From the NCBI RefSeq assembly GCF_004010195.1, contig NC_057755.1, forward strand, positions 4,221,499-4,241,498: 20,000 bases of DNA. Direction: 5' to 3'. Within the stretch, counting starts at the first letter, position 1; the number at the start of each line of letters is the position of its first letter. The position numbers were made by a program, and so were the translations under genes. Source of the stretch: Chiloscyllium plagiosum. Taxonomy: Eukaryota. Below are positions 2,110 through 20,000 of the stretch, one piece after another. Below the pieces are notes generated by a model, which worked only from the letters and a program-made list of their open reading frames with translations, did no database searches and had not been told where the DNA came from.

Positions 2110-2165
2110 TAGAGAGAGGGGAGAGAGAGAGAGAGAGAGGGAGAGGGAGAGGGAGAGAGAGAGGG
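2110..2165. repeat. (GA)n/(GAGAGG)n microsatellite
   Basis: Seen directly; mirrored by (CT)n at 19966-20000. Confidence 0.95.
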
Positions 2166-2383
2166 ACACGGTAGGTGGCAAGTTGAACCCAACGATCGCC
2201 TTGCTTCTCTACATCTCACATCAGTCGTACAACCAATTGTGTTAACGGATTATGACTTATGACATTGTGATTGAGGGGGTGGCAGTTATACAGTTACAAA
2301 TCACCGTTAGGCCTTAGACATAGTCTTGAAGAACTCCAGCAGTGACGTCTGGAGATTAAATGGCTGGCTTCCAACGAACACAC

Positions 2384-2530
2384 CAGTCACATGTAGTCCA
2401 GACCAGGTACAGACAGTCAATTTCTTTCCGTAAAGGACATTAGTGAAACAATGGGTTTTTACAACAAGTTACAATGGTTTCCTCGTCAGTATTAGAGACA
2501 TAATTCCAATTATTTATTCAACTGAAGTTC
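2384..2530 (-). mobile_element. Old SINE-like fragment (resembles the shark Deu-domain SINE type)
   Basis: AGTCACATGTAG-CCAGACCAGGTA...AAAGGACATTAGTGAA...GGGTTTTTACAACAA resembles a repeat I recall as common in shark genomes. Mirrored at about 19620-19760, with a weaker copy near 7530-7630. Family assignment is from memory. Confidence 0.45.
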
Positions 2531-2564
2531 TGGAATCCATCATGATAAGACTTGTCAGAGGTGG

Positions 2565-2697
2565 TACTGCAGATGTTGGAGATTAGAGTCAAGATTAGAG
2601 TAGGTCATCAGGACGAAGGGCTTTTGCCAGAAACTTCGATTTTCCTACTACTCGGATGCTGCCTGACCTGCTGTGTTCTTCCAGCACCACTCTAATC
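2565..2697 (+). mobile_element. Penelope-like element terminal repeat fragment with degenerate hammerhead core
   Basis: GACGAAGGGCTTTTGCCAGAAAC followed by GATGCTGCCTGACCTGCTGTG; the same unit occurs at 10830-10900 and 19469-19550. Confidence 0.7.
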
Positions 2698-3184
2698 ATG
2701 ATAAGATGACCTGAGCCCATCATAATACTTTGGAAGTATCTGAATATTTAGAACCCAAACGTGATACTTTTGTTCCAATAACCAAAATAAGGGTTTTCTG
2801 TTTTGTTATTTAACATTGAATGTAATATTAATTTGTCATTATTTGGTTTCTGGAAAATGGGAACGTAGACATAATGGGGCTGAAAATTGCATTTAATTGG
2901 ATTGACTGTGAACAATTGTGAGACCATTTCGGTTACCTCTGATTGAGATGGGTTCGTGTATTTGTTCAGTGGGAAGCCTGAAGGAATCATGGATGTGCCG
3001 AGTGAACTGTTTTCCTGTGCAAAGGAATGTATTAAGTAGAAAGGTAGAAGAATAATTTACATGTGTTATGTGTGTGCTTGAATATGTGTGTGTGAAATGC
3101 CTCATTCTTCCACATTATGAGTGTTCTATGAAGAATTCTTCCTCTCACTTAGCCTTAAAGGACGTTGGAATGTTTTGATCCTCC

Positions 3185-3410
3185 AGTGCTCTGGTTTCCT
3201 GCCAAAATCCAAAGATGTGCAGGTTAGGTAAATTGACCAAGCTAAATTGCCCATAGTGTTCAAGTATGAGTAAGTTGGGACATTCGTTGGGGCTAGGTGT
3301 AGAGCAATGGGGTGAAGGAGTGGGCCTAGGTGGGTTGGCCTTCGGAGGGTCGTTGTGGACTTATTGGGCAGAAAGGCCTGTTTCCACATTGTCGGGGATT
3401 CTATTCTCTC
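3185..3410 (+). mobile_element. HE1-type V-SINE, 5'-truncated
   Basis: End of the V domain (GTGCTCTGGTTTCCT...CCAAAGATGTGCAGGTTAGG) and CR1-derived tail (GGACTTATTGGGCAGAAAGGCCTGTTTCCACA); matches the fuller copies at 12046-12344 and 18081-18360. Confidence 0.8.
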
Positions 3411-3414
3411 CTGT

Positions 3415-4530
3415 AGTTTTGGCGAGTGTAAAAGTGGACAAGTCCTGAGGTCTGCAGGAGCCGTAACGAACGAGATGACGATGGAAATTATAAGTACTGT
3501 GATCAAATGTTTAATTCCTCTTCAGCTACCCGATTAGTCAGAGGACTTCAGCACAGCTGATGTGTTTCCACTTTTCAAGAAGGGTGGTGGAGATTCACTG
3601 CGAATTACACGTCAGTGATTCCCAGTGCACGGGAAACTATTAGAGAAAATTCTGAAGGAGAGAATTGATCTCCATTTTGAGAGGCAAGGCTAGATCAGTC
3701 ACTGTGGCTTTGTTACAGGGATGAAATGGCTTACAAATCTGGTGGAGTTTTTCGAGTAGTTGACCGTGTCTGGAGATGAGGGTAGGGCAACTGGTGAGGG
3801 TAGGGTATATGGTTTTCAGCAAGGTATTTGACAAGGCAGCACATGGGAGATTAATAACTAAGGTAAAAGCACATGGCATACAAAATTAATTAATTAGCAA
3901 ATTGGTTCCAAAAGTGGCTCTGTCAGAGGAGGCAGAGGGTGTTGATCGAAGGCTGGATGTGTAATTGGAGACTGGTGTTCAGTGCAGTGGTATACCACTG
4001 GGATGGATGTTGTGTCCCTTACTGTTGGTGATATTCATAAATAATAATGAAGAGTGCATGTTTGTGCATGCACATGCGCCCATGTGTATGTGTGTCTGCT
4101 GTATCTGTATCTGAGTCAGTATGTGTGTTTGTGTGTGTGTGTGCGAATGTGTGTGCTGTACGGAATGAGGGTGGGTGGGGATGATAAATAAGTTTGCGAT
4201 GACAAAAATATTGATCGGATGTTTGACAGTGAGGAAAATATTCTTAGGTGACAAACAGAAATAGTTAGGTTGGTCACATGGGCAGATCAATGGCAGGTGG
4301 AATTTAACCCTGATAAACCTGTAGGTGATACACGTTGTCACAAGTTTCAAGACAAGGCAGTACTCAATGAATGGTATGACATTAGAAAGGGCAAAGGAAC
4401 CAAAATATCTTGTGGAGCTTGTTAACAAATCTCTAAAGGTAGTAGGACAGGTCAGTAGGGTAGTTCAGAAGTCGTATATGATATGTGCCTTTACCATTCC
4501 AGACATCAGAGCAGGGAGGTCCTGTTGGAG
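3415..4530 (+). mobile_element. CR1-clade LINE ORF2 fragment with an internal (TG)n tract (about 4055-4160); cut at 4530 by the ERV LTR
   Basis: KVDKS, ADVFPLFKKGG, GKLLEKILKERI, FSKVFDK, KFA-DDTK-like, SLKVVGQVSRVVQK and REVLLE motifs across frameshifts. Confidence 0.85.
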
Positions 4531-5101
4531 TGAAACTTTATATCCTGTTGCAGGCCCTCTTGGTCCTGGGACTCGACAAAAGAATGACTAGGAGTACAAT
4601 CTGCTTAAAGCAAGTTTACCAGTTTAATAAATTAATAAATAGAAGTAGCCTGGGGTAGATTTGCCAGGCAACATGGAGGTTAAAAGTTTCTGTGTTCCGT
4701 AGAGAAATGGTGCAAATACATTTACGTTTTTTTTTAATAGATAGTACAGCCTTAATTACAAGAAAAGACCAATCATATCTAATAAGGTGAAATGATTGAC
4801 AACAGGCTAATCCAATGATATTTCAAGGGAAACAGATTGTTATGTGCATGTTTACTAGTTCAAGGTTACCTCAAAGACGAAATCACTGTCTTATAATTCA
4901 TATTATGAAAATCCATTATAATCTCTTATCTTCTATTTAGCTTAACTCAACAAAACAGCAGCACAAGTTCACAGAGTCAAGTTCATACTTTCAGACATTA
5001 TGTTGTGTTATTTTAAATTGAAAAGCCATTTCGTGGTTAATAAAAATCTACGTATCCTTGTTGCAACTGATAACAGCCTAAATTCAAATTATAGATCCTC
5101 A
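4531..5101 (-). mobile_element. ERV 3' LTR (left-arm copy, 571 bp)
   Basis: On the minus strand it starts TGAGGATCTATA right after the purine run AGGGAA and ends TATAAAGTTTCA (imperfect terminal inverted repeat). It has ATTGG boxes, an A-rich TATA region and ATTAAA, and is homologous to 16594-17264. Confidence 0.8.
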
Positions 5102-5114
5102 TTCCCTGCGTTGG

Positions 5115-6913
5115 TCATTCTATGACCACACCATAAAGGCATGGACCAAATTAATCCAATTCGGTGGCAGTGAAAGACTGCAATCCTTTCTCTTCCTCTG
5201 AAGAGGAATCAAGGACAGGCGATGATGCTTCCTCATCATCATAAAAGTGAGAAGAAGCATTTTCTGGGTGCAACCAATGTTGTCAATAGAAATTAATATT
5301 TTAGCAATAATACACTTATCAATAGCAATGCTAACAAAATGAGCAAATGAACAATAGCAGCATACATAGCCATATTGATAAACCATAAACCAAAACCCCA
5401 ATCTCCCCACCCTGCATCTTCATTCATTTGGTTGACAGAAATGCGGATGATATCTGTATGTCCAATAATGTTTTCGATAAAGTTAGTGACCCCCATGATG
5501 CACTTCCCTTTGACTATGACACAAACGCCACCTTCCTTCACAATAATGTAATCGAGAGCATAGCAGGTTTTGTTGGGTAAATAGGCACAATTCTGAAAGT
5601 AAGACCCTTATTTCTATTAGGCAGCAGTTGTCTCATTTCATGAAATTGTGGGTCCACAAATATTTTGATGATTAATAACTCCTGAAGTCCCTCTAACGGA
5701 AAGAACACGAAGTGCTGCATATGTTAATGAGTGAGTTTTACTATTTGATAGAAGCTTTGGATCCTTCCATTCTGCTCAAAAGTCAGAAGAAACTGAAAGT
5801 TTGACACGGGAATTTGAATCTCGGTGCCAGGTAATTGGACGGGAACAGGAGTTGGAAATGATGCTTCTACAGATACAACACGTGGAGTACTTGCTATATT
5901 CAGGACAAGATACCTTCCTATAACTGAATAATAATATCCAGGTTAAGTATAGATAATGGAGGGATCTTCCCAATAAAAAGCGGGCCTATCTTTGTGACTT
6001 CCTGAGGTACCTGGGTAATCCTTGATTACATAGTTTGGTCCAAACATAAAGGCTGGAAATTATTCAGTCTAATGAGGTGGGTCTCTTGATAAGAATCGTG
6101 GTCGACCTCGCAGAATGGTTCTACCCATCCAATAACTGGGAAGATATTAGTGCAATTAGGTGTATCGTAATGAAGTTGGTTGTGGCAAACCACCCCACAA
6201 AGGGTTTGAATGCCAGAGGTAAAAGAGACACATTCACTCCTTCAGGGAAATAGTGACAACTGATAAATATAGGCATAGCACAGGGGATACTTTTAGGGAA
6301 TTTTACACTCCAATCCGTGCACACCCATCCCTTACTGTTGTAGCAATTTGAATAGGATATAGCGGATTTATTGGAGGATGTCCATAATCCTGTAAATACT
6401 TTAGAATTATTCGTACCCCCATGTTAGGATTTGGAAGGATAAATGAGGTCAGGGAGTGTATTGCTGAAGTAAAGGCGTAACTTCAACCTCTCCAAATATG
6501 TTATTATGAGTTTCGATGAACAAATTGTTAGTGAAGGATAGCATCCCACCTTTCCTCTTTTACTACATGATCTATCTGAAAGGGGCATGGCTCAGTAGAG
6601 ATGCCCATTGTACAAATGAAATTAAACTGACGTACAACATCTTTAGACGATAAAGACCATTTAGATTTGTTCTGTAAATGAACTGGTCAACCTTTTTGAT
6701 GCAGTTGACCACTGCATTAGTCATTCTTGGTAACATTCAGTCTCTTGGCACACAAGGACATCTTCCTGGCAGAGATGGTACACAGTCTCTGGTTGCTCAG
6801 GATCGCACTGGTAAACTGTCCCTTCTTGTGCTCCAAATCTGGCAATGGCAAGTCCATGCAGCCGAGCAAGTGCGATCTATAATATCTCTCCCCTTCCACC
6901 CCCATTTGCAAGT
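5115..6913 (-). pseudogene. env: ERV env pseudogene (left-arm copy), filovirus-GP2-like TM subunit
   Basis: Minus-strand fragments NICGPTIS*NETTAA, ALDYIIVKEGGVCVIVKGKCIMGVTNFIENI, WGDWGFGLW and a hydrophobic TM anchor; many stops and frameshifts. Confidence 0.88.
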
Positions 6914-8977: not shown

Positions 8978-9072
8978 NNNNNNNNNNNNNNNNNNNNNNN
9001 NNNNNNNNNNNNNNNNNNNNNNNNNNNNNNNNNNNNNNNNNNNNNNNNNNNNNNNNNNNNNNNNNNNNNNNN
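8978..9072. other. Assembly gap (95 N)
   Basis: Run of N. Confidence 1.
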
Positions 9073-9528
9073 GTATTCGAACTAACATTGAACCGCTACG
9101 ATGACGTGTATATTTACATAAATTAAGACCCCTTCCCCAGGGAATATCGTTGGATTAGCCTGTTGTCAATCATTTTATCTATTACAGTTGATTGGACTTT
9201 TCTTGTAATTAAGAATCATTTCCCAGGAAATATCACTGGATTAATCTGCTGGAAATCATGTCATCTTATTAAATGTGATTGGTCTTTTCTTGTAATTAAG
9301 GTTGCACTATCTCTTAAAAACAGACAAAGAATCTCAAAGATTCCAAGGTAATTGCACAACTTCACCACAGAACACAAAAGTTTTAGCCTTTGTGTTGCTG
9401 AACAGAATTGCATCAAGGTGCCTTAATGCAATAAACTAATGACGCTTGCCTTTTTCTAAACTGCATTCCATTGAATATTTTGACCGATTACAAAACAAGA
9501 GGCCTCTCTTGAGGTGTTTGGATCTTCA
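9073..9528 (+). mobile_element. ERV 5' LTR (5' part lost in the gap)
   Basis: Direct-orientation homologue of about 16817-17264: the same two roughly 89-bp ATTGG-containing U3 units (9130-9300), AATAAA at 9430-9435, and an end GATCTTCA matching AATCTTCA of the 3' LTR. Confidence 0.8.
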
Positions 9529-9531
9529 TTT

Positions 9532-9549
9532 TTGTGCCATGTTTCATTT
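9532..9549 (+). promoter_or_regulatory. Possible degenerate primer-binding site (tRNA-His-like)
   Basis: TTGTGCCATGTTTCATTT, 3 nt after the LTR end, matches 11/18 positions of the recalled His PBS TGGTGCCGTGACTCGGAT. The position fits but the match is weak. Confidence 0.25.
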
Positions 9550-10509
9550 CAGCTCAGACAGGTCGTTAACAGCGGTGTAAGAGTTAAATTTCTTTCACTA
9601 TTCGGCCGGCCAGATGTGAACATTTTAAGAGCGTTTGGTTTTCCTCTCATTCAAGTCGTGTCTGACATGACCCCTCCCTGTTTATGTTCCAGTCCAGCTC
9701 AAAAGCATCGCTGTTAACAAGGGTTGTTTCTGGGGGACTATGGGGGTCGTGGGTGGTGGTGGGGAGACATTGACTGAGGTTAGCGTTGCTTTTGTACTTA
9801 GGACAGTGGTTTCCGAAAATTGCTGAACTACGAGGAGAGTGTTGAACTCTGAATCTCCCGAACTTCGTTCATTTCCTGGTTTAAAAAGAAGCTCCAATCT
9901 TTGGATCTTCAGCAGTTTTTCGAGGCTGGTGGCCTCAACAGTTTTAATACAGGCAGTTAACTATTACAGAGATAGGAGCCCCCCCACCCCCCCCACCCCC
10001 GATATTTGTGGCTATTACTGGGGCAGTTGACCCCGATATTTAATACAGGTGGTTGATGTTAATTTACAGTGTATTGACTAAGATTTATCTGCTTATAATA
10101 GATAGAAAGGAGGCCTGGATCTTAATAATAAGTTAATAACTAATAATAATAATACCTTAAAAAATCAATACTGAAGTTGATTAATAAAAGAAAATATTGC
10201 AGTATTTTATAAATAAAGGTTAATTTAGTTTTTAAAAAGAGTTTGCGAAATAAATTAACGTTTGTGGAATCCTGATTGGTGAGTTATTTTTTAATCAGTT
10301 GCTATAAAACTGAAGTAATTTTAAAATGGGTAATTGCATAGACAGAACAGATGATCCATCCCCATCGTTAGTGACATTATGTGAAAAAGCTCGAGATCCA
10401 TGACTGTTTTGAATCTGATTTGCATTTTGAAAATTTAACATGATTTATTTTAATGTTAAGGATCCTTCAGTGATTCTGAAATAAAATATTATCTCCTGTT
10501 CAGTTTACA

Positions 10510-10943
10510 GGTCATAACTGTCCTTACCCCACGTCACCCCAGCTGCAGCTTCCAGCTCAGCAACGCTCTCATGACCTATCCTATCTGCCGATCTTCCATT
10601 CCACCTATCAACTCCACCCTCCTCTCTGACCTACCACCTTCATCCCCACCCCCATTCACCCATTGTACTCTTTGCTACCTTTTCCCAACATCATTTCTGA
10701 CCATCCCCATCCCCATTTACCATCTTCCATCCCCACCCTCATTCACCTGAAGTCCTCTATCCTACTCTCTCTCCACCCCCACCCCCCTCTCATTTATCTC
10801 TCCACCCTGCAGGCACCCTGCCTCTATTCCTGACGAAGGGCTTTTGCCCGAAACAATGATTTTCCGGCTCCTTGGGTGCTGCCTGACCTGCTGTGCTTTA
10901 ATCTCGACTCTGGTTTCCAGCATCTGCAGTGCTTGTTTTTACC
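10510..10943 (+). mobile_element. Penelope-like element 3' region/terminal repeat inserted in the provirus
   Basis: C-rich tract followed by CCTGACGAAGGGCTTTTGCCCGAAAC...TGCTGCCTGACCTGCTGTGC...TTCCAGCATCTGCAGT. Confidence 0.75.
10830..10860 (+). ncRNA. Minimal hammerhead ribozyme core of a Penelope-like element, probably inactive
   Basis: CTGACGA, stem II GGGC-TTTT-GCCC, then GAAAC. The expected cleavage triplet after GAAAC reads AAT rather than GTC. Confidence 0.6.
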
Positions 10944-12045
10944 ATGGCTGCCCTACTGTCAGTTTCTAACAAATACCTTTTATTCTTACGAGAAAGTCAA
11001 CCTTATTCGATTTCAAATCAGTTTAATAAGCAGCAACCTTTTTTGTTTCAGACTCGCTTGTTTCCACTTAATATTAAGTCTGCTGTGTTTAATTGGTGAT
11101 CACTGATAAGCACAGTTGTAGTCTTATTGAGGGAGTCTCCTCCCTCAATGACTATTGAAGTTTCAGTTCAATATTGGATTGCGATAAATCATCTAACAAA
11201 ATTAGAACCCGATGGTTAATATCTGTGTCTTTGGATTCAGCCATTATTCATGCACTAGAAGTTTGCTTTTTCATTTGAACAGACAAAACCTTTTGAGGCA
11301 GCTTCCGTTATTTCACGACCTTTAGCATTGTAAATGTGCAATGACTGGTCAAGACCAATCTTGGACTTTTAGGGTAATTATAGTGGATTTCAATGTTGGG
11401 AACCGTGTACATTTTACGTTTTAAATATTAAATGATGAACAAATGAATTTGCAATTTATATTGATGACTGAAAGAAAATAACATGCGGCATGTTACTTAG
11501 ATACATAGTGTAAAAATAATGACCAGAGATATATTACCACAGAGGAGATCTGCTCTCAAAACAAGAAAAGAGAACTAACCACTGTTGATCCTCCAATGTC
11601 CACAAAAAGAAATGAAAACTTGTTTTCCAGGCTCTTCTTCAGCTGGATCCCCACTCAATAATGGGCAAAGTGTGCTTGGTAACACTCCACTCAATATCCA
11701 CACTAAATTCTATCCACATCATTAGCAGTCTCTAAAAATGTAAAAGGACTACTGACTGACTTAAGCAGTCACCGCTGTCACCCAGAATTCCACCCTTTGG
11801 ACAATAGGGACAGCCAAACACATCAAGGAATAGGTGTTAAATCAATCGCTATTTCATTTGTAGCATCACTGCCCCATTGCCATGGAGTAAGCAGGCTCAA
11901 TAATTTCGCAGCCATGTGATACAGTGACCAGGATGATTGAAAGAGACAAATCACCTATTTTGTTATTCTCCTCTTGCAAATTTTGATTCGCTGAAAATTC
12001 AAGTCCGAAGAGTAACTTTCAGATTATTTATTATTATTTTTTAAT

Positions 12046-12344
12046 TAGATTACATTGCAGTGTGGAAACAGGCCCTTCGGCCCAATAAGTCCACACCGAC
12101 CCGCCGAAGTGCAACCCACCTACATTTACACCTTACCTAACACTACGGGCAATTTCGCATGGCCAATTCACATTTCCTGCACATCTTTGGACTGTGGGAG
12201 GAAACTGGAGCACACGTAGGAAACCTGCGCAGACTCGGGGAGAACGTGCAAACTCCACACAGTCAGTCGCCTGATGCGGTATTTGAACCTGGGTCTCTGG
12301 CGCTGTGAGGCAGGAGTGCTAACCACTGTGCCACCGTGCCGCCC
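12046..12344 (-). mobile_element. HE1-type tRNA-derived V-SINE, full length
   Basis: Minus strand begins GGGCGGCACGGTGGCACAGTGGTTAGCAC (A box), then GGTTCAAATACC (B box), V domain TGTGTGGAGTTTGCACGTTCTCCCCG and tail GGGCCGAAGGGCCTGTTTCCACACTG. Confidence 0.92.
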
Positions 12345-12714
12345 ACTAATGACAATTATGACAATCAAGATTCCAAAATGTATAGTTAGCAACAGGCTTT
12401 AAAGTTAGACAAACATAAATTGTTAAATTGGTTAAATAAGGTTAAAATTAAATTAGAGCCGAGGAGATCAACAACAGAAGGGAACGGAATGATGCAATAA
12501 CAAGGATAAAACAAGGATAAAGCAGTAGAATACAGATTTTAAAAATGTTTTAGTTAGATTCCCACACTGAATTACAGATAATGATTCATTTATTCATTAC
12601 TTTATTATGATACTTTATACTATTTATAATAATCAGTTGTATTCGCCCCAATCAAATTTCATTGGCAGGGTCGCTTGTTTTAATTCCATTGCACATTGTC
12701 AGTGACCTGTCTTA

Positions 12715-13095
12715 TTGCCTCATGGCTAACTTAAAACATGGCTGCATTAATTTATTGTTAATTAAACAATGGAAAGATAACTTACTGTCCAGTTGAAGAC
12801 ATTCTGTATGTGATTGGGGGATTGAACCATGATGCAAGTTACAGGTAAACCAAATTATATCCAGCGCCCTCACGATCCCAAAAGCCATATGCCAGTCCTG
12901 ATATGGTTGATTGGAACCAGGATAGCCAATGGGGGCGGAACCTACTTCATGCACCAACCCGACGACCACTGCTGGACAACCTTTTCCCGAAAATGGGGAC
13001 AGGCAATTCCCAGAACTTCACCTTTGAGACGAGGAACAAGAAAGCAAAATCTCCCAGGGACATACGCCTGGCCCTTGCTTTAACTGTTGAAATGT
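12715..13095 (+). pseudogene. gag: ERV gag 3' remnant (nucleocapsid zinc-knuckle half)
   Basis: 13067-13090 reads PGPCFNC* (TGA where Gly is expected), the first half of a CX2CX4HX4C knuckle. It lies between the LTR and RNase H; the upstream boundary is approximate. Confidence 0.5.
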
Positions 13096-13124
13096 GACCA
13101 AGGCGGAGTAATAAGTTTTTAATG

Positions 13125-13403
13125 GTAGCTCGGAACTGATGTTGGGAATCGGCATGCTTTCATCCTATCAAAAGGAAAATCTACAAATATACACTGACTC
13201 TTCATTGTGTTTTTAAAATGATCCACGATGTTGGAGTTTTGTGGGAACATTGAAGATTTGTAACCACCCAAGGGGGCAGTGTTATAGTAATGCTATTTTG
13301 TCCAATCAATCTGACGCTTTTCAAGATGTTTAGCTCATGCCAATAAAGCTGATACTGTTTCTAAAGTAGTGGGTAAGTATATGCAGCTGCCAAGTAGGCC
13401 GGC
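13125..13403 (+). pseudogene. pol: ERV pol RNase H remnant (gamma/epsilon-like)
   Basis: Across frameshifts: ILSKGKSTN-YTDS, CVFKMIHDVGVLWEH*RFVTTQG, RCLAHANKADTVSK, YAAAK*A, matching the NIYTDSRYAF..HDFG.LW..RGFLT / KC.AH / D.AAK.A pattern. Confidence 0.75.
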
Positions 13404-14630
13404 TTTCACAGCAAACTTCTGAGCCCATTGGGTCCCCCAGCAAAACCCGGTTAGACACAGAATAAGGACGGGTATGCCAGCTCTGGGTAAGGTACAGAAA
13501 TCACCGGGGAATGAGACTATCTGTTCAGTGCCAATTCACAATGTAAAGGTTGATATATCTATTGCTTACTCACTGTAAAAAAGTTTACTGTTTGAATCAT
13601 TTTCCATATTGTTTAGAAATTTGGAAGTAATTTTCAAATGACCATTTCTGAAATGATACAGGCACTTTATATTAAAATATACTACTGACTGAATTATCAA
13701 GTGATTTGAGTTCATACATAGACACTAAGACTAAATGTCGTTGCTTTGTGTTTGCAGCTTATCTGAATGCACACTAGTTGATTTGATTTATCTTTGGACG
13801 GGGCTGTTAGATGTAAGGAGGAATGTCCGGCTGAACTATTACCTTCAATTAGATATTTGATACTGAACAGTGATGGTTTATAATTTTAAGACTGTGCCAA
13901 TGTCCAAATTCAAGGTTCGCTCAATATTAGAAAATGTCAGTGTGGTTTGAAAGCTTTGTGTCATGTTACTATAATTTGGGGACAGCATTGCCCACCAGCT
14001 ACTCATCGCCAACTTTTCTGCTCAAAATGACCATCTGGTTGCTACACTGAATTCTAAATACTGTTAACTACAGCTGTAGGTCGGGCCATTCGATTGGGCA
14101 CGAAGTTGACGTATGATTTTAAAGAGAATACAATATATTGCGGAACTAATCTAAATTTTAGGTAAAATTGATGTTTTTCGCAGCAAACCTTCGAAGACTA
14201 TTACCTCTTAGCAAAGCTGGCTTTATAAAAATAGGATTGTTTAATTCGCCCATGCCAGGGCTCCTCCATATAAAGTAAGAAAATAATGGATAGGAAGGGA
14301 ATCTCTGGTGCAAAGTTTAAAAATAATGAGCCTTTTGCCAGTGTGAGCGATATATTTACTCAAGTGGGCTACATGAGTTTGATTAAATTGAGAATTATTT
14401 ATTTCAAAATTGCTCTTAAGACTTCTAGCCTGCTGATGGGCACACATTATGGCCTCAAATAGGGTACTCCCACGATATTCAAACCAGAATATAGGTGAGT
14501 CCTACTACATGAGTTTGTGTTACTGCTTTGCTGCTGCATATTTTAATTGAGGATGTGTATATTGTATACACTTATATACAAGGAGGGAATGGTTTATACT
14601 TTATTACAATGGACACTCCACGGCCTCATA

Positions 14631-14777
14631 CCCTGATGGGAAGGACCCTTCCAGGTCGTCCTCACCACCCCAACTGTTGCTTAGGTCGCAGAACGTTCTG
14701 GCTGAGTCCATCTCCATCATTGCAAGGTCATCAGAAAAGCCACTTGCACGCGGGATGGAAGAGGAGAGATAATATAG
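14631..14777 (+). pseudogene. pol: ERV pol integrase C-terminal (GPY/F) remnant
   Basis: One frame reads P*WEGPFQVVLTTPTVA*VAERSG*VHLHHCKV, matching the gamma/epsilon-retroviral PRWxGPY/FxVLLTTPTAxKV...WIHxxHxK motif; the stops fall at the R, K and W positions. Confidence 0.9.
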
Positions 14778-16580
14778 ATCGAACTTGCCCGGCTGTGTGG
14801 ACTTGCCATTGCCAGCTTTGGAGCACAAGAAGGGACAGTTTACCTGTGCGATCCAGAGCAACCAGAGACTGTGTATCATCTCTGCCAGGAAGATGTCCTT
14901 GTGTGCCAAGAGACTGAATGTTACCAAGAATGAGTAATGCAGTGGTCAACTGCATCAAAAAGATTGAACAGTTCATTTACAGAACAAATCTAAATGGTCT
15001 TTACCCTGTAAAGGTGTTGTGTGCCAGTTAAATTTCATTTGTACTATGGGCATCCCTGGTCAGCCATGTCCCCTTTTAGATAGATCATGCAGTAAAAGAG
15101 GAAAGGTGGGATGCGATCTTTCACTAACAATTTGTTTCTCGAAACCCATAATAACTTATTTGGAGAGGTTGAAGTTACGCCTTTACTTCAGCAATAGACT
15201 CCCTGACCTCTTTTCTCCTTCTAAATCCTATCATGGGGGTATCGAATAGTTCTAAAGTATTTACAGGATTATGGACATCCTCCAATAAATCCGCAATATC
15301 CTATCCAAATTGCTACAACAGTAACGGATGGGGGTGCACGGATTGGAGTGTACTTATGTAAAATTGCCTACAATTATCCCCTGTGCTATGCCTAAATGTA
15401 TCAGTTGTCACTGTTTCCCGGAAGGACCACACATTCCTTCAGGAGGAATGTGTCTCTATTACCTCTGGTATTCAAATTCTTTGTGGGGTATTTTACCACC
15501 ACCAACTTCATTATGATACACCTAATTGCACTAATATTTTCCCCGTTATTGGATGGGTAGAACCATTCTGCGATGTCGATCACGTTTCTTATCAAGAGAC
15601 CCACCTCATTCGACTGAATGATTTCCAGCCTTTTTGTTCGGAACCAAACTATATAATCAAGGATTACCCAGGTACCTCAGGAAGTCACAAAGATAGGCCC
15701 GCTTCTTATTGGGAAGGTCACTCCATTATCTATACTTAACCTGGATATTATTATTCAGTTATAGTGAGGCATCTTGTCCTGAATACAGCAAGTACTCCAC
15801 GTGTTGTAGCTGTCGAAGCATTATTTCCAACTCCTGTTCCCTGTCCAATTACCTGGCACCGAGATTCAAATTCCCGTGTCAAACTTTCAGTTTCTCCTGA
15901 GTTTTGTGCAGAATGGAAGGATCCAAAGTTTCTATCAAATAGTAAAACTCACTCATTAACATATGCAGCACTTAGTGTTCTTTCCGTTAGAGGGTCTTCA
16001 GGAGTTATTAGTCATCAAAACATTTGTGGACGCACAATCTCATGAAATGAGACAATTGCTTCCTAATCGAGGTAAGGGTCGTGCTTTCAGAATTGTGCCT
16101 ATTTACCCAACAAAACCGCGATGCTCTCGATTACATTATTGTGAATGAAGATGGCATTTGCATCATAGTCAAAGGAAAGTGCATCATGGGGGTCACTAAC
16201 TTTATCGAAAACATTACTGGACAAATAGATATCATCCGCACTTCTGTCAACCAAATGAATGAAGGTGCAGGGTGGGGAGATTGGGGTTTTGGTTTATGGT
16301 ACAAAGGGCTTATCAATATGGCTATGTATGCTGCTATTGTTCATTTGGTCATTTTGTTAGTATTGCTATTGATCAGTGTATTATTGCTAAAATATTAATT
16401 TATATTGACAACATTGGTTTCACCCAGAAAATACTAATTCTCCACTTTGATGATGATGATGCGGAAGCATCATCGCCGGTCCCTGATTCCTCTTCAGAGG
16501 AAGAGAAAGGATTGCAGTCTTTCGCTGCCATAGAATTGGATGAATTTGGTCCATGCCTTTATGGTGTAGTCATTGAATGA
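14750..16580 (+). pseudogene. env: ERV env pseudogene (right-arm copy): Cys-rich SU and filovirus-GP2-like TM
   Basis: Directly follows integrase. Signal-like LARLCGLAIAS; Cys-rich SU fragments; RVKL at 15875-15886 at the furin-site position; Cys at 15905 and 16025; NET at 16046; ISD-like QQNRDALDYII; C-x6-C; Trp-rich WGDWGFGLW; TM anchor; tail ending in TGA at 16578-16580. Start is approximate. Confidence 0.9.
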
Positions 16581-16593
16581 TCAACGCAGGGAA

Positions 16594-17264
16594 GGAGGAT
16601 CTATAATTTGAATTTAGCTGTTGTCAGATGCAACAAGTATATGTAGATTTTTATTAACTACGAAATAGCTTTTCAATTTAAAATAACACAACATAATGGC
16701 TAAAAGTAAGAACTTGACTCTGTGAACTTGTGCTGCTGCTTTGTTGAGTTAATCTAAATAGAAGATAAGTGATTATAATGGATTTTCATAATATGAATTA
16801 TAAGACAGTGATTTCGTATTTGAGGTAAACTTGAACTAGTAAACATGCGTACAACAATCTATTTCCCTTGAAATGTCATTGGATTAGCCTGTCGTCAATC
16901 ATGTCACTATATTACAGTCGATTGGACTTTTCTGCTAATTAAGATACTTTTCCCAGGAAATATCATTGGATTAACCTCCTGTAAATGATGTCACCTTATT
17001 AGATATGATTGGTCTTTTCTTGTAATTCAGGCTGTACTATCTATAAAAAACATAAGTAATAAGTAATTGTCAAATGTATTTGCACTATTTCTCTACGGAG
17101 CACAGAAACGTTTAACCTCCGTGTTGCTTGGCAAATCTACCCCAGTCTACCTCTATTTATTAATTTATTAAACGTGTAACCTTGCTTTAAACAGATTGTA
17201 CTCCGAATCATTCTTTTGACGAGTCCTAAAACCAAGAGGGCCTGCAACGGGGTATAAATCTTCA
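16594..17264 (+). mobile_element. ERV 3' LTR (671 bp)
   Basis: Follows AGGGAA (short PPT-like run); starts GGAGGATCTATA (TGAGG... in the left copy) and ends TATAAATCTTCA (12-bp imperfect inverted termini); tandem U3 units 16861-17030; TATAAAA 17042-17048; ATTAAA 17167-17172. Confidence 0.82.
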
Positions 17265-18665
17265 CTCCAACAGGACCTCCCTATTCTTATGTCTCGAATG
17301 GTAAAGGCACATATCCTATACGCCTTCTGAACGACCCTATTAACCTGTCCTGCTACCTTTAGAGATCTGTTAACAAGCTCCTCAAGATCTTTTGGTTCCT
17401 TTGCCCTACCTAGTGTCGTATTATTCATTGAGTACTGCCTTCTTTTGAAGCTTCTAGTAACCGGTATCACCTACAGGTTTATCAGGGTTACATTCCACCT
17501 GTCATTGATCTGCCCATTCACCAACCTTTCTATTTCTGATTGTCACCGAAGAATATTTTTCTCACTGTCAAACATCCGATCAATATTTGTGACATGGCAA
17601 ACATATTTATCATCCCCACACACACTCAGCCCCTACAGCACACACATTCACAACACACAAGCATACTCTGACACACACAAACACGAACACACAGACTCAC
17701 TCACATACAGACACAACAGACACACACACACATGTGCACACGTGTGCATGCACAAAAAGGCACATTCTTCATTATCATTTATGAATATCACCAACAGTAA
17801 GGGACCCAACATTCATCCGAGTAGTACACCACTTCATCTGATCACCAGCCTTCAATTACACATCCAGCTTTCTATCAACACCCTCTGCCTCCTCTGACAG
17901 AGCAAATTTTGGAACCAAATTGCTAATTAATTGTGGATGCAACGTGCTTTTACCTTAGTTATCAATCTCCCATGTGCTGCCTTGTCAAAGGCCTTGGTGA
18001 AAGCCATACACACTGCATCAGTTGCCCTACTCTCATCGACAGACACGGTCAACTACACGAAAAGTCCCATCAAGTTTGTGAGCGGCACGGTGGCACAGTG
18101 CTTAGCACTGCTGCCTCACAGCACCAGAGACCCGGGTTCAATTCCCAACTCAGGCGACTGACTGTGTGGAATTTGCACATTCTCCCCGTGTTTCCTCTGG
18201 GTGCTCCGGTTTCCTCCCAGAGTCCAAATATGTAAAGGTCAGGTGAATTGGCCATGCTAAATTGCCTGTTGTGTTAGGTTAATGAATGGGAATGGGTGGG
18301 TTACGCTTCGGCGGGTCGGTGTGGACTTGTTGTAAATACTGTAAATAATCTCATCTAATCTCTGTAACAAAGCCGCAGTGACTGATCTAGCCTTGCCACT
18401 CAAAATGGAGATCAATTCTCTCCTTCAGAATTTTCTCTAATAGTTTCCCGTGCACTGCGAATCACTGACGTGTAATTCCAGGTCAATCTCCACCACACTT
18501 CTTGAAAAGTGGAAACACATCAGCTGTGCTGAAGTCCTCTGATTCATCGGGTAGCTGAAGAGGAATTAAAAATTTGATCACAGTACTTGTAATTTCCACG
18601 ATCATCGCCTTGGTTACAGCTCCCGCAGACCTCAGGACTTGTCCACTTTTGGACTCGCCAAAACT
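17265..18665 (-). mobile_element. CR1-clade LINE ORF2 fragment (mirror of 3415-4530) with a (CA)n tract and a nested SINE
   Basis: ADVFPLFKK, DLEELVNRSLKVAGQVNRVVQKAY motifs; (CA)n-rich tract about 17615-17755. Confidence 0.85.
18081..18360 (+). mobile_element. HE1-type V-SINE, present only in the right arm
   Basis: GCGGCACGGTGGCACAGTGCTTAGCAC A box, GGTTCAATTCCC B box, V domain; the matching left-arm site (about 3720-3730) is empty. Confidence 0.9.
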
Positions 18666-18671
18666 ACTGTA

Positions 18672-18885
18672 TAGAATAGAATCCTTACAGTGTAGAAACA
18701 GGCCCTTCGGCCCAACAAGTCCATGCCGACCCTCCGAAGGGCAACCCATACTGGCCCAATACTCTCCATCTAGCCGCAACGAATGCACCCAACCTAGTCT
18801 TACCCGAACATGATGGGCACTTTAGCTTGGTCAATTCATCTAACCTGCACATCTTTGGATTGTGGGAGGAAACCAGAGCACCTGG
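18672..18885 (-). mobile_element. HE1-type V-SINE, 5'-truncated (mirror of 3185-3410)
   Basis: GAAACAGGCCCTTCGGCCCAACAAGTCC tail and AACCTGCACATCTTTGGATTGTGGGAGGAAACCAGAGCAC V-domain end. Confidence 0.85.
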
Positions 18886-19388
18886 AGGATCAAGACATTC
18901 CAACGTCCTTTAAAGCTAAGTGAGAGAAAGAATTCTTAATAAAACACTCATAATGTTGATGCATGAGGCATTTTACACACACACATTCAAGCACATGCAT
19001 GACACATATGCCTCTCACACGTAAATTATTCTTCTACCTTTCTGCTGAATACATTACTTTGTACAGGAAAACAGTTCCCTCGGCTTATCAATGATTCCTT
19101 CAGGCTTCCCACTGAAAAAATACACGAACCCATCTCAATCAGAGGCAACCTAAATGGTTTCACAATTGTTCACAGTCAATCCAATTAAATAAATTTTCAG
19201 CCCCATTATGTCTACATTCCCATTTGGTAGAAATCAAATAATGAGAAATTAATATTACACACAATGTTAAATAACAAAACAGAAAACCTTTATTTTGTTT
19301 ATTGGAACAAAAGTATCACGTTTGGGTTCGAAATATTCAGATACTTCCAAAGTATTATGATGGACTCAGGTCATCTTATCATGGTTAA

Positions 19389-19590
19389 AGTGGCGCTGGA
19401 AGAGCACAGCAGGACAGGCAGTATCCGAGGAGCAGAAAAATCGAAGTTTCGGGCAATAGCCCTTCGTCCTGATGAAGTGCTTTTGCCCGAAACATCGATT
19501 TTTCTGCTCCTCAGATGCTGCCTGACCTGCTGTGCTTTTCCATCACCACTCTAATCTTGACTCTAATCTCCAAAATCCGCATCACCACCT
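19389..19590. mobile_element. Two head-to-head Penelope-like terminal repeats forming a roughly 80-bp-arm palindrome with hammerhead cores
   Basis: 19390-19468 is the approximate reverse complement of 19471-19550; the + arm has CTGATGA (19469)...GAAAC (19489) ATC. Confidence 0.8.
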
Positions 19591-20000
19591 CTGACAAGTT
19601 TTATCATGATGGCTTCCGGAACTTCAGTTTAATGTGTGATTGGAATTTTGCCTCTAATACTATTATTGTCAATTGTTGTAAAAAAAACCCATTGTTTCAC
19701 TCATGTCCTTTTGGGGAAAGAAAACTACTGTCTGTACCTGGTGTGGTCTACATGTGACTGGTCTGTTTGTTGGAGGCCAGCCATTTAAACTCCAGGACTT
19801 CACTGCTAGCGTTCCTCAAGAATGTGTCTGAGGCCTAATTGTGTTTCGTGACTGACTAACTGCCACTCCCTCAATCATAACGTCATAAATCAGAATCCGT
19901 TAACACAATGACTTGTGATGTAGAGAAGCAAGGTAATCTTTAGGTTCAACTTGCCAACTGCCGTGTCTCTCTCTCTCTCCCTCTCCCTCTCTCTCTCTCT

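Follow-up and report, generated by a model that had tools for sequence, protein, structure and literature searches.

The 20,000-nucleotide stretch of Chiloscyllium plagiosum DNA analysed here (the window) holds, in the reading to which we give a probability of about 0.85, the broken env gene of an endogenous retrovirus (ERV) copy without pol, a class I pol being found in sister copies; this env likely belongs to a filovirus-related group of Env proteins published in 2024, and its intact ancestor would have relied on an internal fusion loop and the formation of a six-helix bundle to fuse membranes. The env remnant occupies approximately positions 14770-16580 of the forward strand (Table 1). Its retroviral character and its position between a gamma/epsilon-type integrase (IN) tail and an LTR, both claimed in the initial annotation, were borne out: the gene is LTR-bounded here, and class I pol is present in sister copies. 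LTR pairs were found in the window and at loci L039, L043, L044 and L045, the start of the 5' LTR of the window having been lost at a gap of N (8978-9072). The internal region consists of pieces common to other pol-less copies and is interrupted by other repeats, and a tblastn search across the window for reverse transcriptase (RT), RNase H and IN core gave no match, leaving the IN tail as the only trace of pol. Taken alone, the match of this tail to the C terminus of a skate Pol is weak; the matched segment falls within Pfam MLVIN_C, and at L035 the same stretch precedes env. Repeats that we presume to be LINE-like RT fragments and SINE-like elements flank or interrupt the element at 135-488, 3979-4591 and 17168-17897.

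Table 1. Features of the ERV locus in the window (positions in the 20,000-nt stretch)
Feature	Position	Strand	Evidence
Inverted duplicate of env with the start of the LTR	4751-6902	-	90.7% identical over 2194 nt to right arm
5' LTR remnant	about 9121-9470, end approximate	+	79.5% over 259 nt to 3' LTR; matches L043, L039, L035 LTRs
Internal region without recognisable pol	10389-14627	+	blocks 74-89% identical to L043, L031, L040, L038
Integrase C-terminal tail remnant, gamma/epsilon type	14625-14678	+	72% over 18 aa, E=0.016, skate Pol P0019 638-655
env (broken): stretch resembling a signal peptide, with an additional Cys-rich domain of ~85 aa near the N terminus	14778-15066	+	tblastn of P0029, P0068, P0120, P0004, E 2e-7 to 9e-5
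env: SU, with stops and frame changes	15093-15886	+	tblastn of P0001, P0002; stop counts
env TM: Cys-x39-Cys internal fusion loop, hydrophobic Gly/Ala/Ser-rich core	15905-16027	+	60.7 bits to family loop profile
env TM: HR1 with NET sequon, ISD, CX6C, HR2 with NIT	16028-16260	+	Pfam, PDB sequence search, translation
env TM: Trp/Gly-rich membrane-proximal region, membrane anchor, acidic tail	16261-16580	+	tblastn of P0001; translation
3' LTR after purine-rich tract	16595-17267, end approximate	+	matches both LTRs of L043, L044, L045, L039

At least nine stops in the frames counted, together with several frame changes, interrupt env, and the copy in the window is predicted to be non-functional and to yield no protein. 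Within TM a stop (16043-16045) and a frame break near 16060 are followed by a further frame change near 16350; the frame break had been described as shared with a second copy, and both it and the stop recur in the inverted copy (L011), which has the same loop length as the right arm and a stop at the position of the first loop Cys. Translation of the right arm confirmed the Cys at 15905-15907, which makes up a C-x39-C with a second Cys at 16025-16027, and both annotated N-glycan sequons (NET at 16046, NIT at 16210). Between the sequons lie an ISD at about 16114 and a CX6C motif at 16159-16182 that lacks the third Cys, a point absent from the initial annotation. The cleavage site placed there just before the loop has its counterpart in relatives with furin sites (P0001, P0003 and P0005; skate, manta and others), but the window copy has no furin consensus at this position. 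The open piece at 16051-16395 matched Pfam TLV_coat with E=0.0034, a score short of the curated threshold; its best matches among PDB sequences were filovirus glycoproteins (E=1.3e-6 to 1e-3), with 4n21, which we take to be CAS virus GP2 (4e-3), syncytin-2 (1e-2), MLV (0.15) and ASLV (1.0) lower.

The inverted copy belongs to a duplication that reaches the host flank (2132-6902 against 14752-20000), with flanking blocks 82-88% identical. All 150 scored candidates, out of 1337 in the scan of the genome (G000), matched the family, at least 150 matches in all, and the longest open frame among these matches is 311 aa. Of 30 loci compared, 10 (both window arms included) have a common stop, frame break and length of loop, at 92-100% identity, and the outer flank beyond the LTR was common to two of five longer loci tested. 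Because the breaks and the outer flanks are shared, this subfamily was evidently copied together with host DNA after it was broken; the window copy and nine near-identical copies arose in this way, by duplication of host DNA containing an already defective gene. A segmentally duplicated region at about 3.89-4.36 Mb of contig C46 in the same genome holds at least seven near-identical env copies, which lie in either orientation and have flanks in common. In several copies env and the LTRs are kept, no pol is seen between them, and the same internal blocks recur (window 9121-17267; L043, 992-8760; L031, L040, L038), which suggests a non-autonomous subfamily that retained env.

These copies form part of a large class I ERV family. 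RT-RNase H-IN pieces lie upstream of env at L035, L037 and L041, RT/RNase H at L032, and IN at L039 and L021. The sister-copy RT has 40% identity with the class I Pol of a snake, against 24-31% with the avian Pols that it hit (nine of eleven), and the LTR-bounded order of pol then env, with RT nearer class I than class II, is that of a class I (gamma/epsilon-like) ERV; the RT and pol evidence for this comes from sister copies, the window itself carrying the IN tail alone. Directly after the 5' LTR of L043 (1565-1592) is a primer-binding-like site that we take to be of the tRNA-His type, a type of primer site found in fish epsilonretroviruses. A 260-aa open frame at L017 led to an unbroken 561-aa protein of the skate Leucoraja erinacea (P0001, 45% identity), which in turn gave 420 protein matches at E<=0.001. 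Among the 150 matches listed are proteins of other cartilaginous fish as well as Leucoraja (Mobula, Hemiscyllium, Stegostoma), glycoproteins of Mengla, Marburg, Lloviu, Sudan and Ebola viruses, Tapajos virus GP, CAS virus GPC, and squamate Envs (Mabuya Mab2 and Mab3, Anolis, Pseudonaja); the ALV/RSV Env rows used for comparison came from a separate search. Unbroken copies contain Pfam TLV_coat and Ebola-like_HR1-HR2 and have the ISD and heptad repeats of a gamma-type TM.

That retroviruses of sharks and rays possess fusion proteins like those of filoviruses is already in print (Nino Barreat and Katzourakis 2024, PMC11521997), and with the headline finding published the window locus, a dead copy of a known kind, adds only a further such copy. 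In the available part of that paper the ectodomains of cartilaginous-fish ERVs are sister to ebola-, cueva-, marburg- and dianloviruses with a posterior probability (PP) of 0.83, Tapajos virus groups with lizard elements including Mab2 (PP 1), and reptarenaviruses group with tarsier elements; for some shark and skate elements the best reciprocal hit is Tapajos or CAS virus. The part available of PMC11398700 repeats this placement. The published ERVs (from Chiloscyllium, Scyliorhinus, Amblyraja and Leucoraja) share with ours a retroviral context, an Ebola-like HR1-HR2 domain and best hits to Marburg, Mengla, Ebola, Tapajos or CAS glycoproteins, and on this agreement of host genera and best-hit pattern the window env likely belongs to the same group. 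The published treatment differs in covering the ectodomain only, and its accessible portion makes no mention of the fusion loop, the missing third Cys, an SU link to Mab2/Tapajos or an extra N-terminal domain. Excerpts of other papers describe gamma-type Envs in six cartilaginous fish, including CXnC variants (bioRxiv 2021.11.23.469661, the supplements of which may hold the shark Env family), the homology of gamma-type and filovirus Envs (PMC9967133; bioRxiv 2023.10.07.561363) and Mab3/4-like Envs (PMC13568524); the origin of Tapajos GP is not discussed in the available part of PMC8498845. In the literature searched, no paper deals with the extra domain or relates the SU of shark Envs to that of Tapajos/Mab2, although subscription papers and supplements may do so.

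The likeness of TM to filovirus GP2, on which the initial annotation was built, is real. With P0001 as query, the top 41 of 58 matches among PDB sequences can be recognised, from their names or entries, as filovirus glycoproteins (E 2e-17 to 1e-6), followed by syncytin-2 (2e-6), CAS-type GP2 (4e-6), ASLV (4e-4) and MLV (0.014), a ranking that is in part a sampling effect because most fish and reptile gamma-type Envs are absent from PDB and from BFVD, where the top matches are likewise filoviral. A TM hairpin from a low-confidence predicted model superposes on post-fusion models of filoviruses with an rmsd of 2.2-2.5 A (72-98 columns). Foldseek against PDB gave no match at E<=0.001. The ungapped alignment to Ebola GP2 given in the annotation holds on the real sequence, but its 27/72 identities were a product of merging the two copies, the right arm alone giving 24/72 (6/14 + 18/58). 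Over the same 72 columns seven unbroken family sequences gave 23-33 identities to Ebola, 24-31 to Marburg, 19-24 to Tapajos, 15-22 to CAS and 16-21 to ALV, and 27-33 to an ordinary gamma-type TM (P0045). Since the latter scores as high, identity over these columns is not diagnostic, and we do not accept the raw count of identities with Ebola as proving a relationship. Likewise, on a family profile of the HR1-ISD-HR2 core, 19 of 34 gamma-type rows score above the best mammalian filovirus and 13 of 34 above Tapajos, scores inflated by the choice of these rows as hits to P0001; ASLV-like TMs, which keep CX6CC, score lowest (35-52 bits).

More distinctive is the arrangement of cysteines. Counting back from the ISD Asn, the family has one Cys at 30 residues and a second 39-46 residues further upstream; the pair encloses a hydrophobic peptide soon after the cleavage position, as in an internal fusion loop, and is missing in nearly all gamma-type rows. 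The spacing is x44 in filoviruses and CAS virus, x37 in Tapajos and Mab2, x35 in ALV, and x43 in most other copies of the same genome, and C-x39-C is rejected as a family trait, x39 being limited to the dead subfamily and a separate subgroup. The proposal of a filovirus/ASLV-type loop stands for the Cys-flanked architecture. The loop sequence is not Ebola-like: the family loop profile gives 14-22 bits to squamate ERV Envs, 17.6 to CAS virus, 10.3 to Tapajos, 4.6 to Marburg and -0.1 to Ebola. A squamate ERV Env clade (P0041, P0078, P0131, P0036, P0044, P0032) has this fusion-loop sequence in common with the family and CAS virus GP2. The third Cys of CX6CC is present in 34/34 gamma-type rows, the four mammalian filoviruses tabulated, CAS virus and ALV, and absent from all the family rows (0/16 have it), as also from Tapajos, Mab2 and two squamate rows checked. 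The family thus differs both from a canonical CX6CC gamma-type Env and from an Ebola/Marburg-type glycoprotein, with its CX6CC and non-retroviral context, and files as a CXnC variant of gamma-type Env, such variants having been described (bioRxiv 2021.11.23.469661, available part).

By analogy with ASLV TM and filovirus GP2, we hypothesize that the ancestral protein would have been cleaved by furin seven residues before the first loop Cys, that the disulfide-closed internal fusion loop would have inserted into the target membrane, and that TM would then have refolded into a hairpin trimer, or six-helix bundle, fusing the membranes. The absence of the third Cys makes it likely that no covalent bond joined SU to TM, and the same would be predicted for Tapajos GP and Mab2. 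A filovirus-like loop in a gamma-type Env without a covalent SU-TM link would mean that two features usually taught as a pair come apart.

Comparison of known systems over their whole length makes Mab2 Env and the glycoprotein of the snake filovirus Tapajos virus, rather than Ebola, the likely closest relatives. Mab2 (ATY46612.1) and Tapajos GP (YP_010798909.1) share with the family SU homology, a similar N-x-F...Y-G...C-Y motif at the SU start, the Cys-flanked loop and the missing third Cys; they differ in loop spacing and in having CX7C rather than CX6C, lack the extra N-terminal domain, and are identical at only 15-24/72 positions of the TM core. The GP2 of Ebola, Sudan, Marburg, Lloviu and Mengla viruses (22-33/72) resembles the family in loop spacing, HR1 sequon, ISD, GG-x-C loop and HR2 sequon, and differs in its inter-subunit Cys, its loop sequence, the lack of detectable GP1 homology and its place in a negative-strand RNA virus. 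An HR1 sequon is also a common feature of gamma-type Envs outside mammals (PMC9967133). CAS virus GP2 and the squamate Envs (Anolis, Pseudonaja) are alike in fusion-loop sequence, but CAS virus keeps CC, no SU homology was detected for either, and the squamate clade stands apart in the trees. ASLV Env also has its internal fusion peptide inside a disulfide loop (bioRxiv 2023.10.07.561363, available part), with a different spacing, CX6CC, class II pol and the lowest core scores.

The SU, by sequence comparison, is homologous to those of Mab2 Env and Tapajos GP and not detectably to Marburg or Mengla GP1. When SU parts of 14 family members were combined into a profile and compared with 221 non-family proteins, Mab2 ranked first (E=4e-13) and Tapajos GP second (0.0018), followed by a gamma-type Env (0.0026), with Marburg at E>=4.6; none of 300 shuffles reached any of the first three scores, the Lloviu construct (3/300) and Mab3 (4/300) were borderline, and Marburg, Mengla, CAS, ALV and Anolis were at chance. 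The SU of Mab2 alone (phmmer) found Tapajos at 5e-16 and family members from 3.5e-8, and in profile-profile comparison Tapajos/Mab2 reached 88.8%, against 0.2-1.7% for the SU sets of filoviruses, ALV, squamates and gamma-type Envs. Mab2 is the main bridge, direct similarity between family and Tapajos SU being weak (12.6 bits, equal to that of the unrelated gamma-type Env P0069). Full-length Ebola GP1 was compared with the family SU through the search of PDB sequences, in which the SU-side profile had no match at E<=10; AlphaFold models (mean pLDDT 53 for P0002 and 48 for P0163, loop region at low confidence) are too weak for a structural comparison of SU with GP1.

TM trees were built from 76 of 83 intended rows, seven without the anchor motif having been dropped (five own-genome frames, P0020 and P0146), and from a sampling without MLV, syncytins, percomORF, and the tarsier and Varanus elements. 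Under LG+G4 (85 columns) the family, including the window row, formed one clade (97/95) beside Tapajos and Mab2 (88/80), and these grouped with CAS virus and the mammalian filoviruses, five in number (93/83); ASLV-like and squamate rows, and the gamma-type rows (92/93), stood outside this group. In this tree, then, TM does not fall inside ordinary gamma-type or ASLV-type clades, the outcome named beforehand as counting against a filovirus link. A mixture model with 44 rows retained the family (97/95) and its grouping with Tapajos/Mab2 (84/87), with the wider grouping unresolved; with the loop added (31 rows, 129 columns) the tree was nearly a star, with the family at 97/98 and family plus Tapajos/Mab2 at 60/83 as printed. 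Tapajos and Mab2 were therefore the nearest relatives, weakly supported, in all three trees, and a grouping of the family with Ebola/Marburg-type filoviruses was recovered in none of them. AU tests rejected no alternative (family with mammalian filoviruses, p=0.30 and 0.43; family with ASLV-like rows, 0.17; all filoviruses together, 0.09), and TM alone does not settle the sister group. The suggestion that this is a lineage close to the source of filovirus and reptarenavirus glycoproteins is thus upheld in part, by the joint clade apart from gamma-type and ASLV-like rows, a grouping that dissolves under the mixture model. A special closeness to Ebola GP2 is not supported: identity is no higher than to gamma-type TMs, loop and third Cys differ, and SU points to Mab2/Tapajos.

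As regards the nearest relative, and in a manner compatible with our main reading, there is about an even chance that the family, Mab2 and Tapajos GP constitute a single whole-length Env lineage without an SU-TM disulfide, of which Ebola and Marburg are a separate, more distant offshoot. The SU searches with their shuffle control, the shared lack of the third Cys and the node recovered in each tree all argue for this. Against it, that node was never starred, the family-Tapajos link in SU depends on Mab2 as a bridge, Ebola GP1 entered only by way of PDB, SU and TM can recombine, and slowly changing SUs could retain an ancestral likeness that Ebola/Marburg GP1 has lost. That the family is instead the specific sister of Ebola/Marburg/Lloviu/Mengla GP2, and so nearest to the donor of the mammalian filovirus glycoprotein, we regard as unlikely though deserving of attention: it agrees with the published PP of 0.83 (PMC11521997, available part), with the x43 loop (x44 in these viruses) and CX6 spacing, with the filoviral top matches in PDB and BFVD and with the AU tests, but PDB and BFVD are unevenly sampled, none of the three trees recovered it, the loop profile prefers squamate, CAS and Tapajos sequences, the viruses have the third Cys that the family lacks, and SU resembles neither Marburg nor Mengla GP1 nor any PDB chain.

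It is decidedly improbable that this Env is simply one of the usual gamma-type or ASLV-type proteins, without any particular tie to the glycoproteins of filoviruses or reptarenaviruses. The gamma-type rows that outscore filoviruses on the core profile, the collapse of deep nodes under the mixture model and the AU result for ASLV-like rows speak for it; however, those row scores are inflated, a branch separates the gamma-type rows from the family (92/93 and 79/91), nearly all gamma-type rows lack the two loop Cys, ASLV-like TMs are the lowest on the core profile and keep CX6CC, and SU is homologous to Tapajos/Mab2. A filovirus-derived insertion or a host-domesticated, syncytin-like gene, for which the TM similarity to GP2 might speak, is refuted for this locus, and the initial annotation rightly set a free insertion aside, given the LTRs and IN tail here, RT in sister copies, the stops and frame changes in env, and a longest open frame of 311 aa among the 150 matches.

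It is tempting to go further and propose, tentatively and at somewhat less than even odds, that shark and ray ERV Envs, Mab2 and Tapajos GP are one SU and TM lineage in which the fusion loop is internal and SU and TM are not joined by a disulfide, one branch of which carries an extra domain of ~85 residues; that Tapajos virus captured an entire retroviral env; and that the published Ebola/Marburg placement is an effect of the short ectodomain. The question of the retroviral donor of the filovirus glycoprotein has so far been argued from fewer than 100 TM residues, and SU offers independent evidence on it that favours the Tapajos/Mab2 link, which if true would be a modest new refinement for specialists in virus evolution.

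The branch in question, which includes the window copy, has its extra N-terminal domain (Cys-rich, predicted beta, with 6-9 Cys) between the signal peptide and the SU start motif, as in P0002, P0004, P0029, P0068 and P0120, and a furin-like site separates it from SU in four of five such proteins. It was detected in 28 of 46 sequences compared, many of which overlap or are too short, and is absent from P0163, P0007, P0008, Mab2 and Tapajos. No description of it as an Env module was found in the literature searched. A wide fold search gave only a fungal beta-sandwich (1zld, Z 7.3, not significant), and Env-type clusters in the ESM Atlas at 0.87-0.90 provide a lead. Among the relatives, the Stegostoma protein P0020 looks mosaic, with a gamma-type TM front half containing CC joined to a membrane-proximal and anchor region like that of the shark family.
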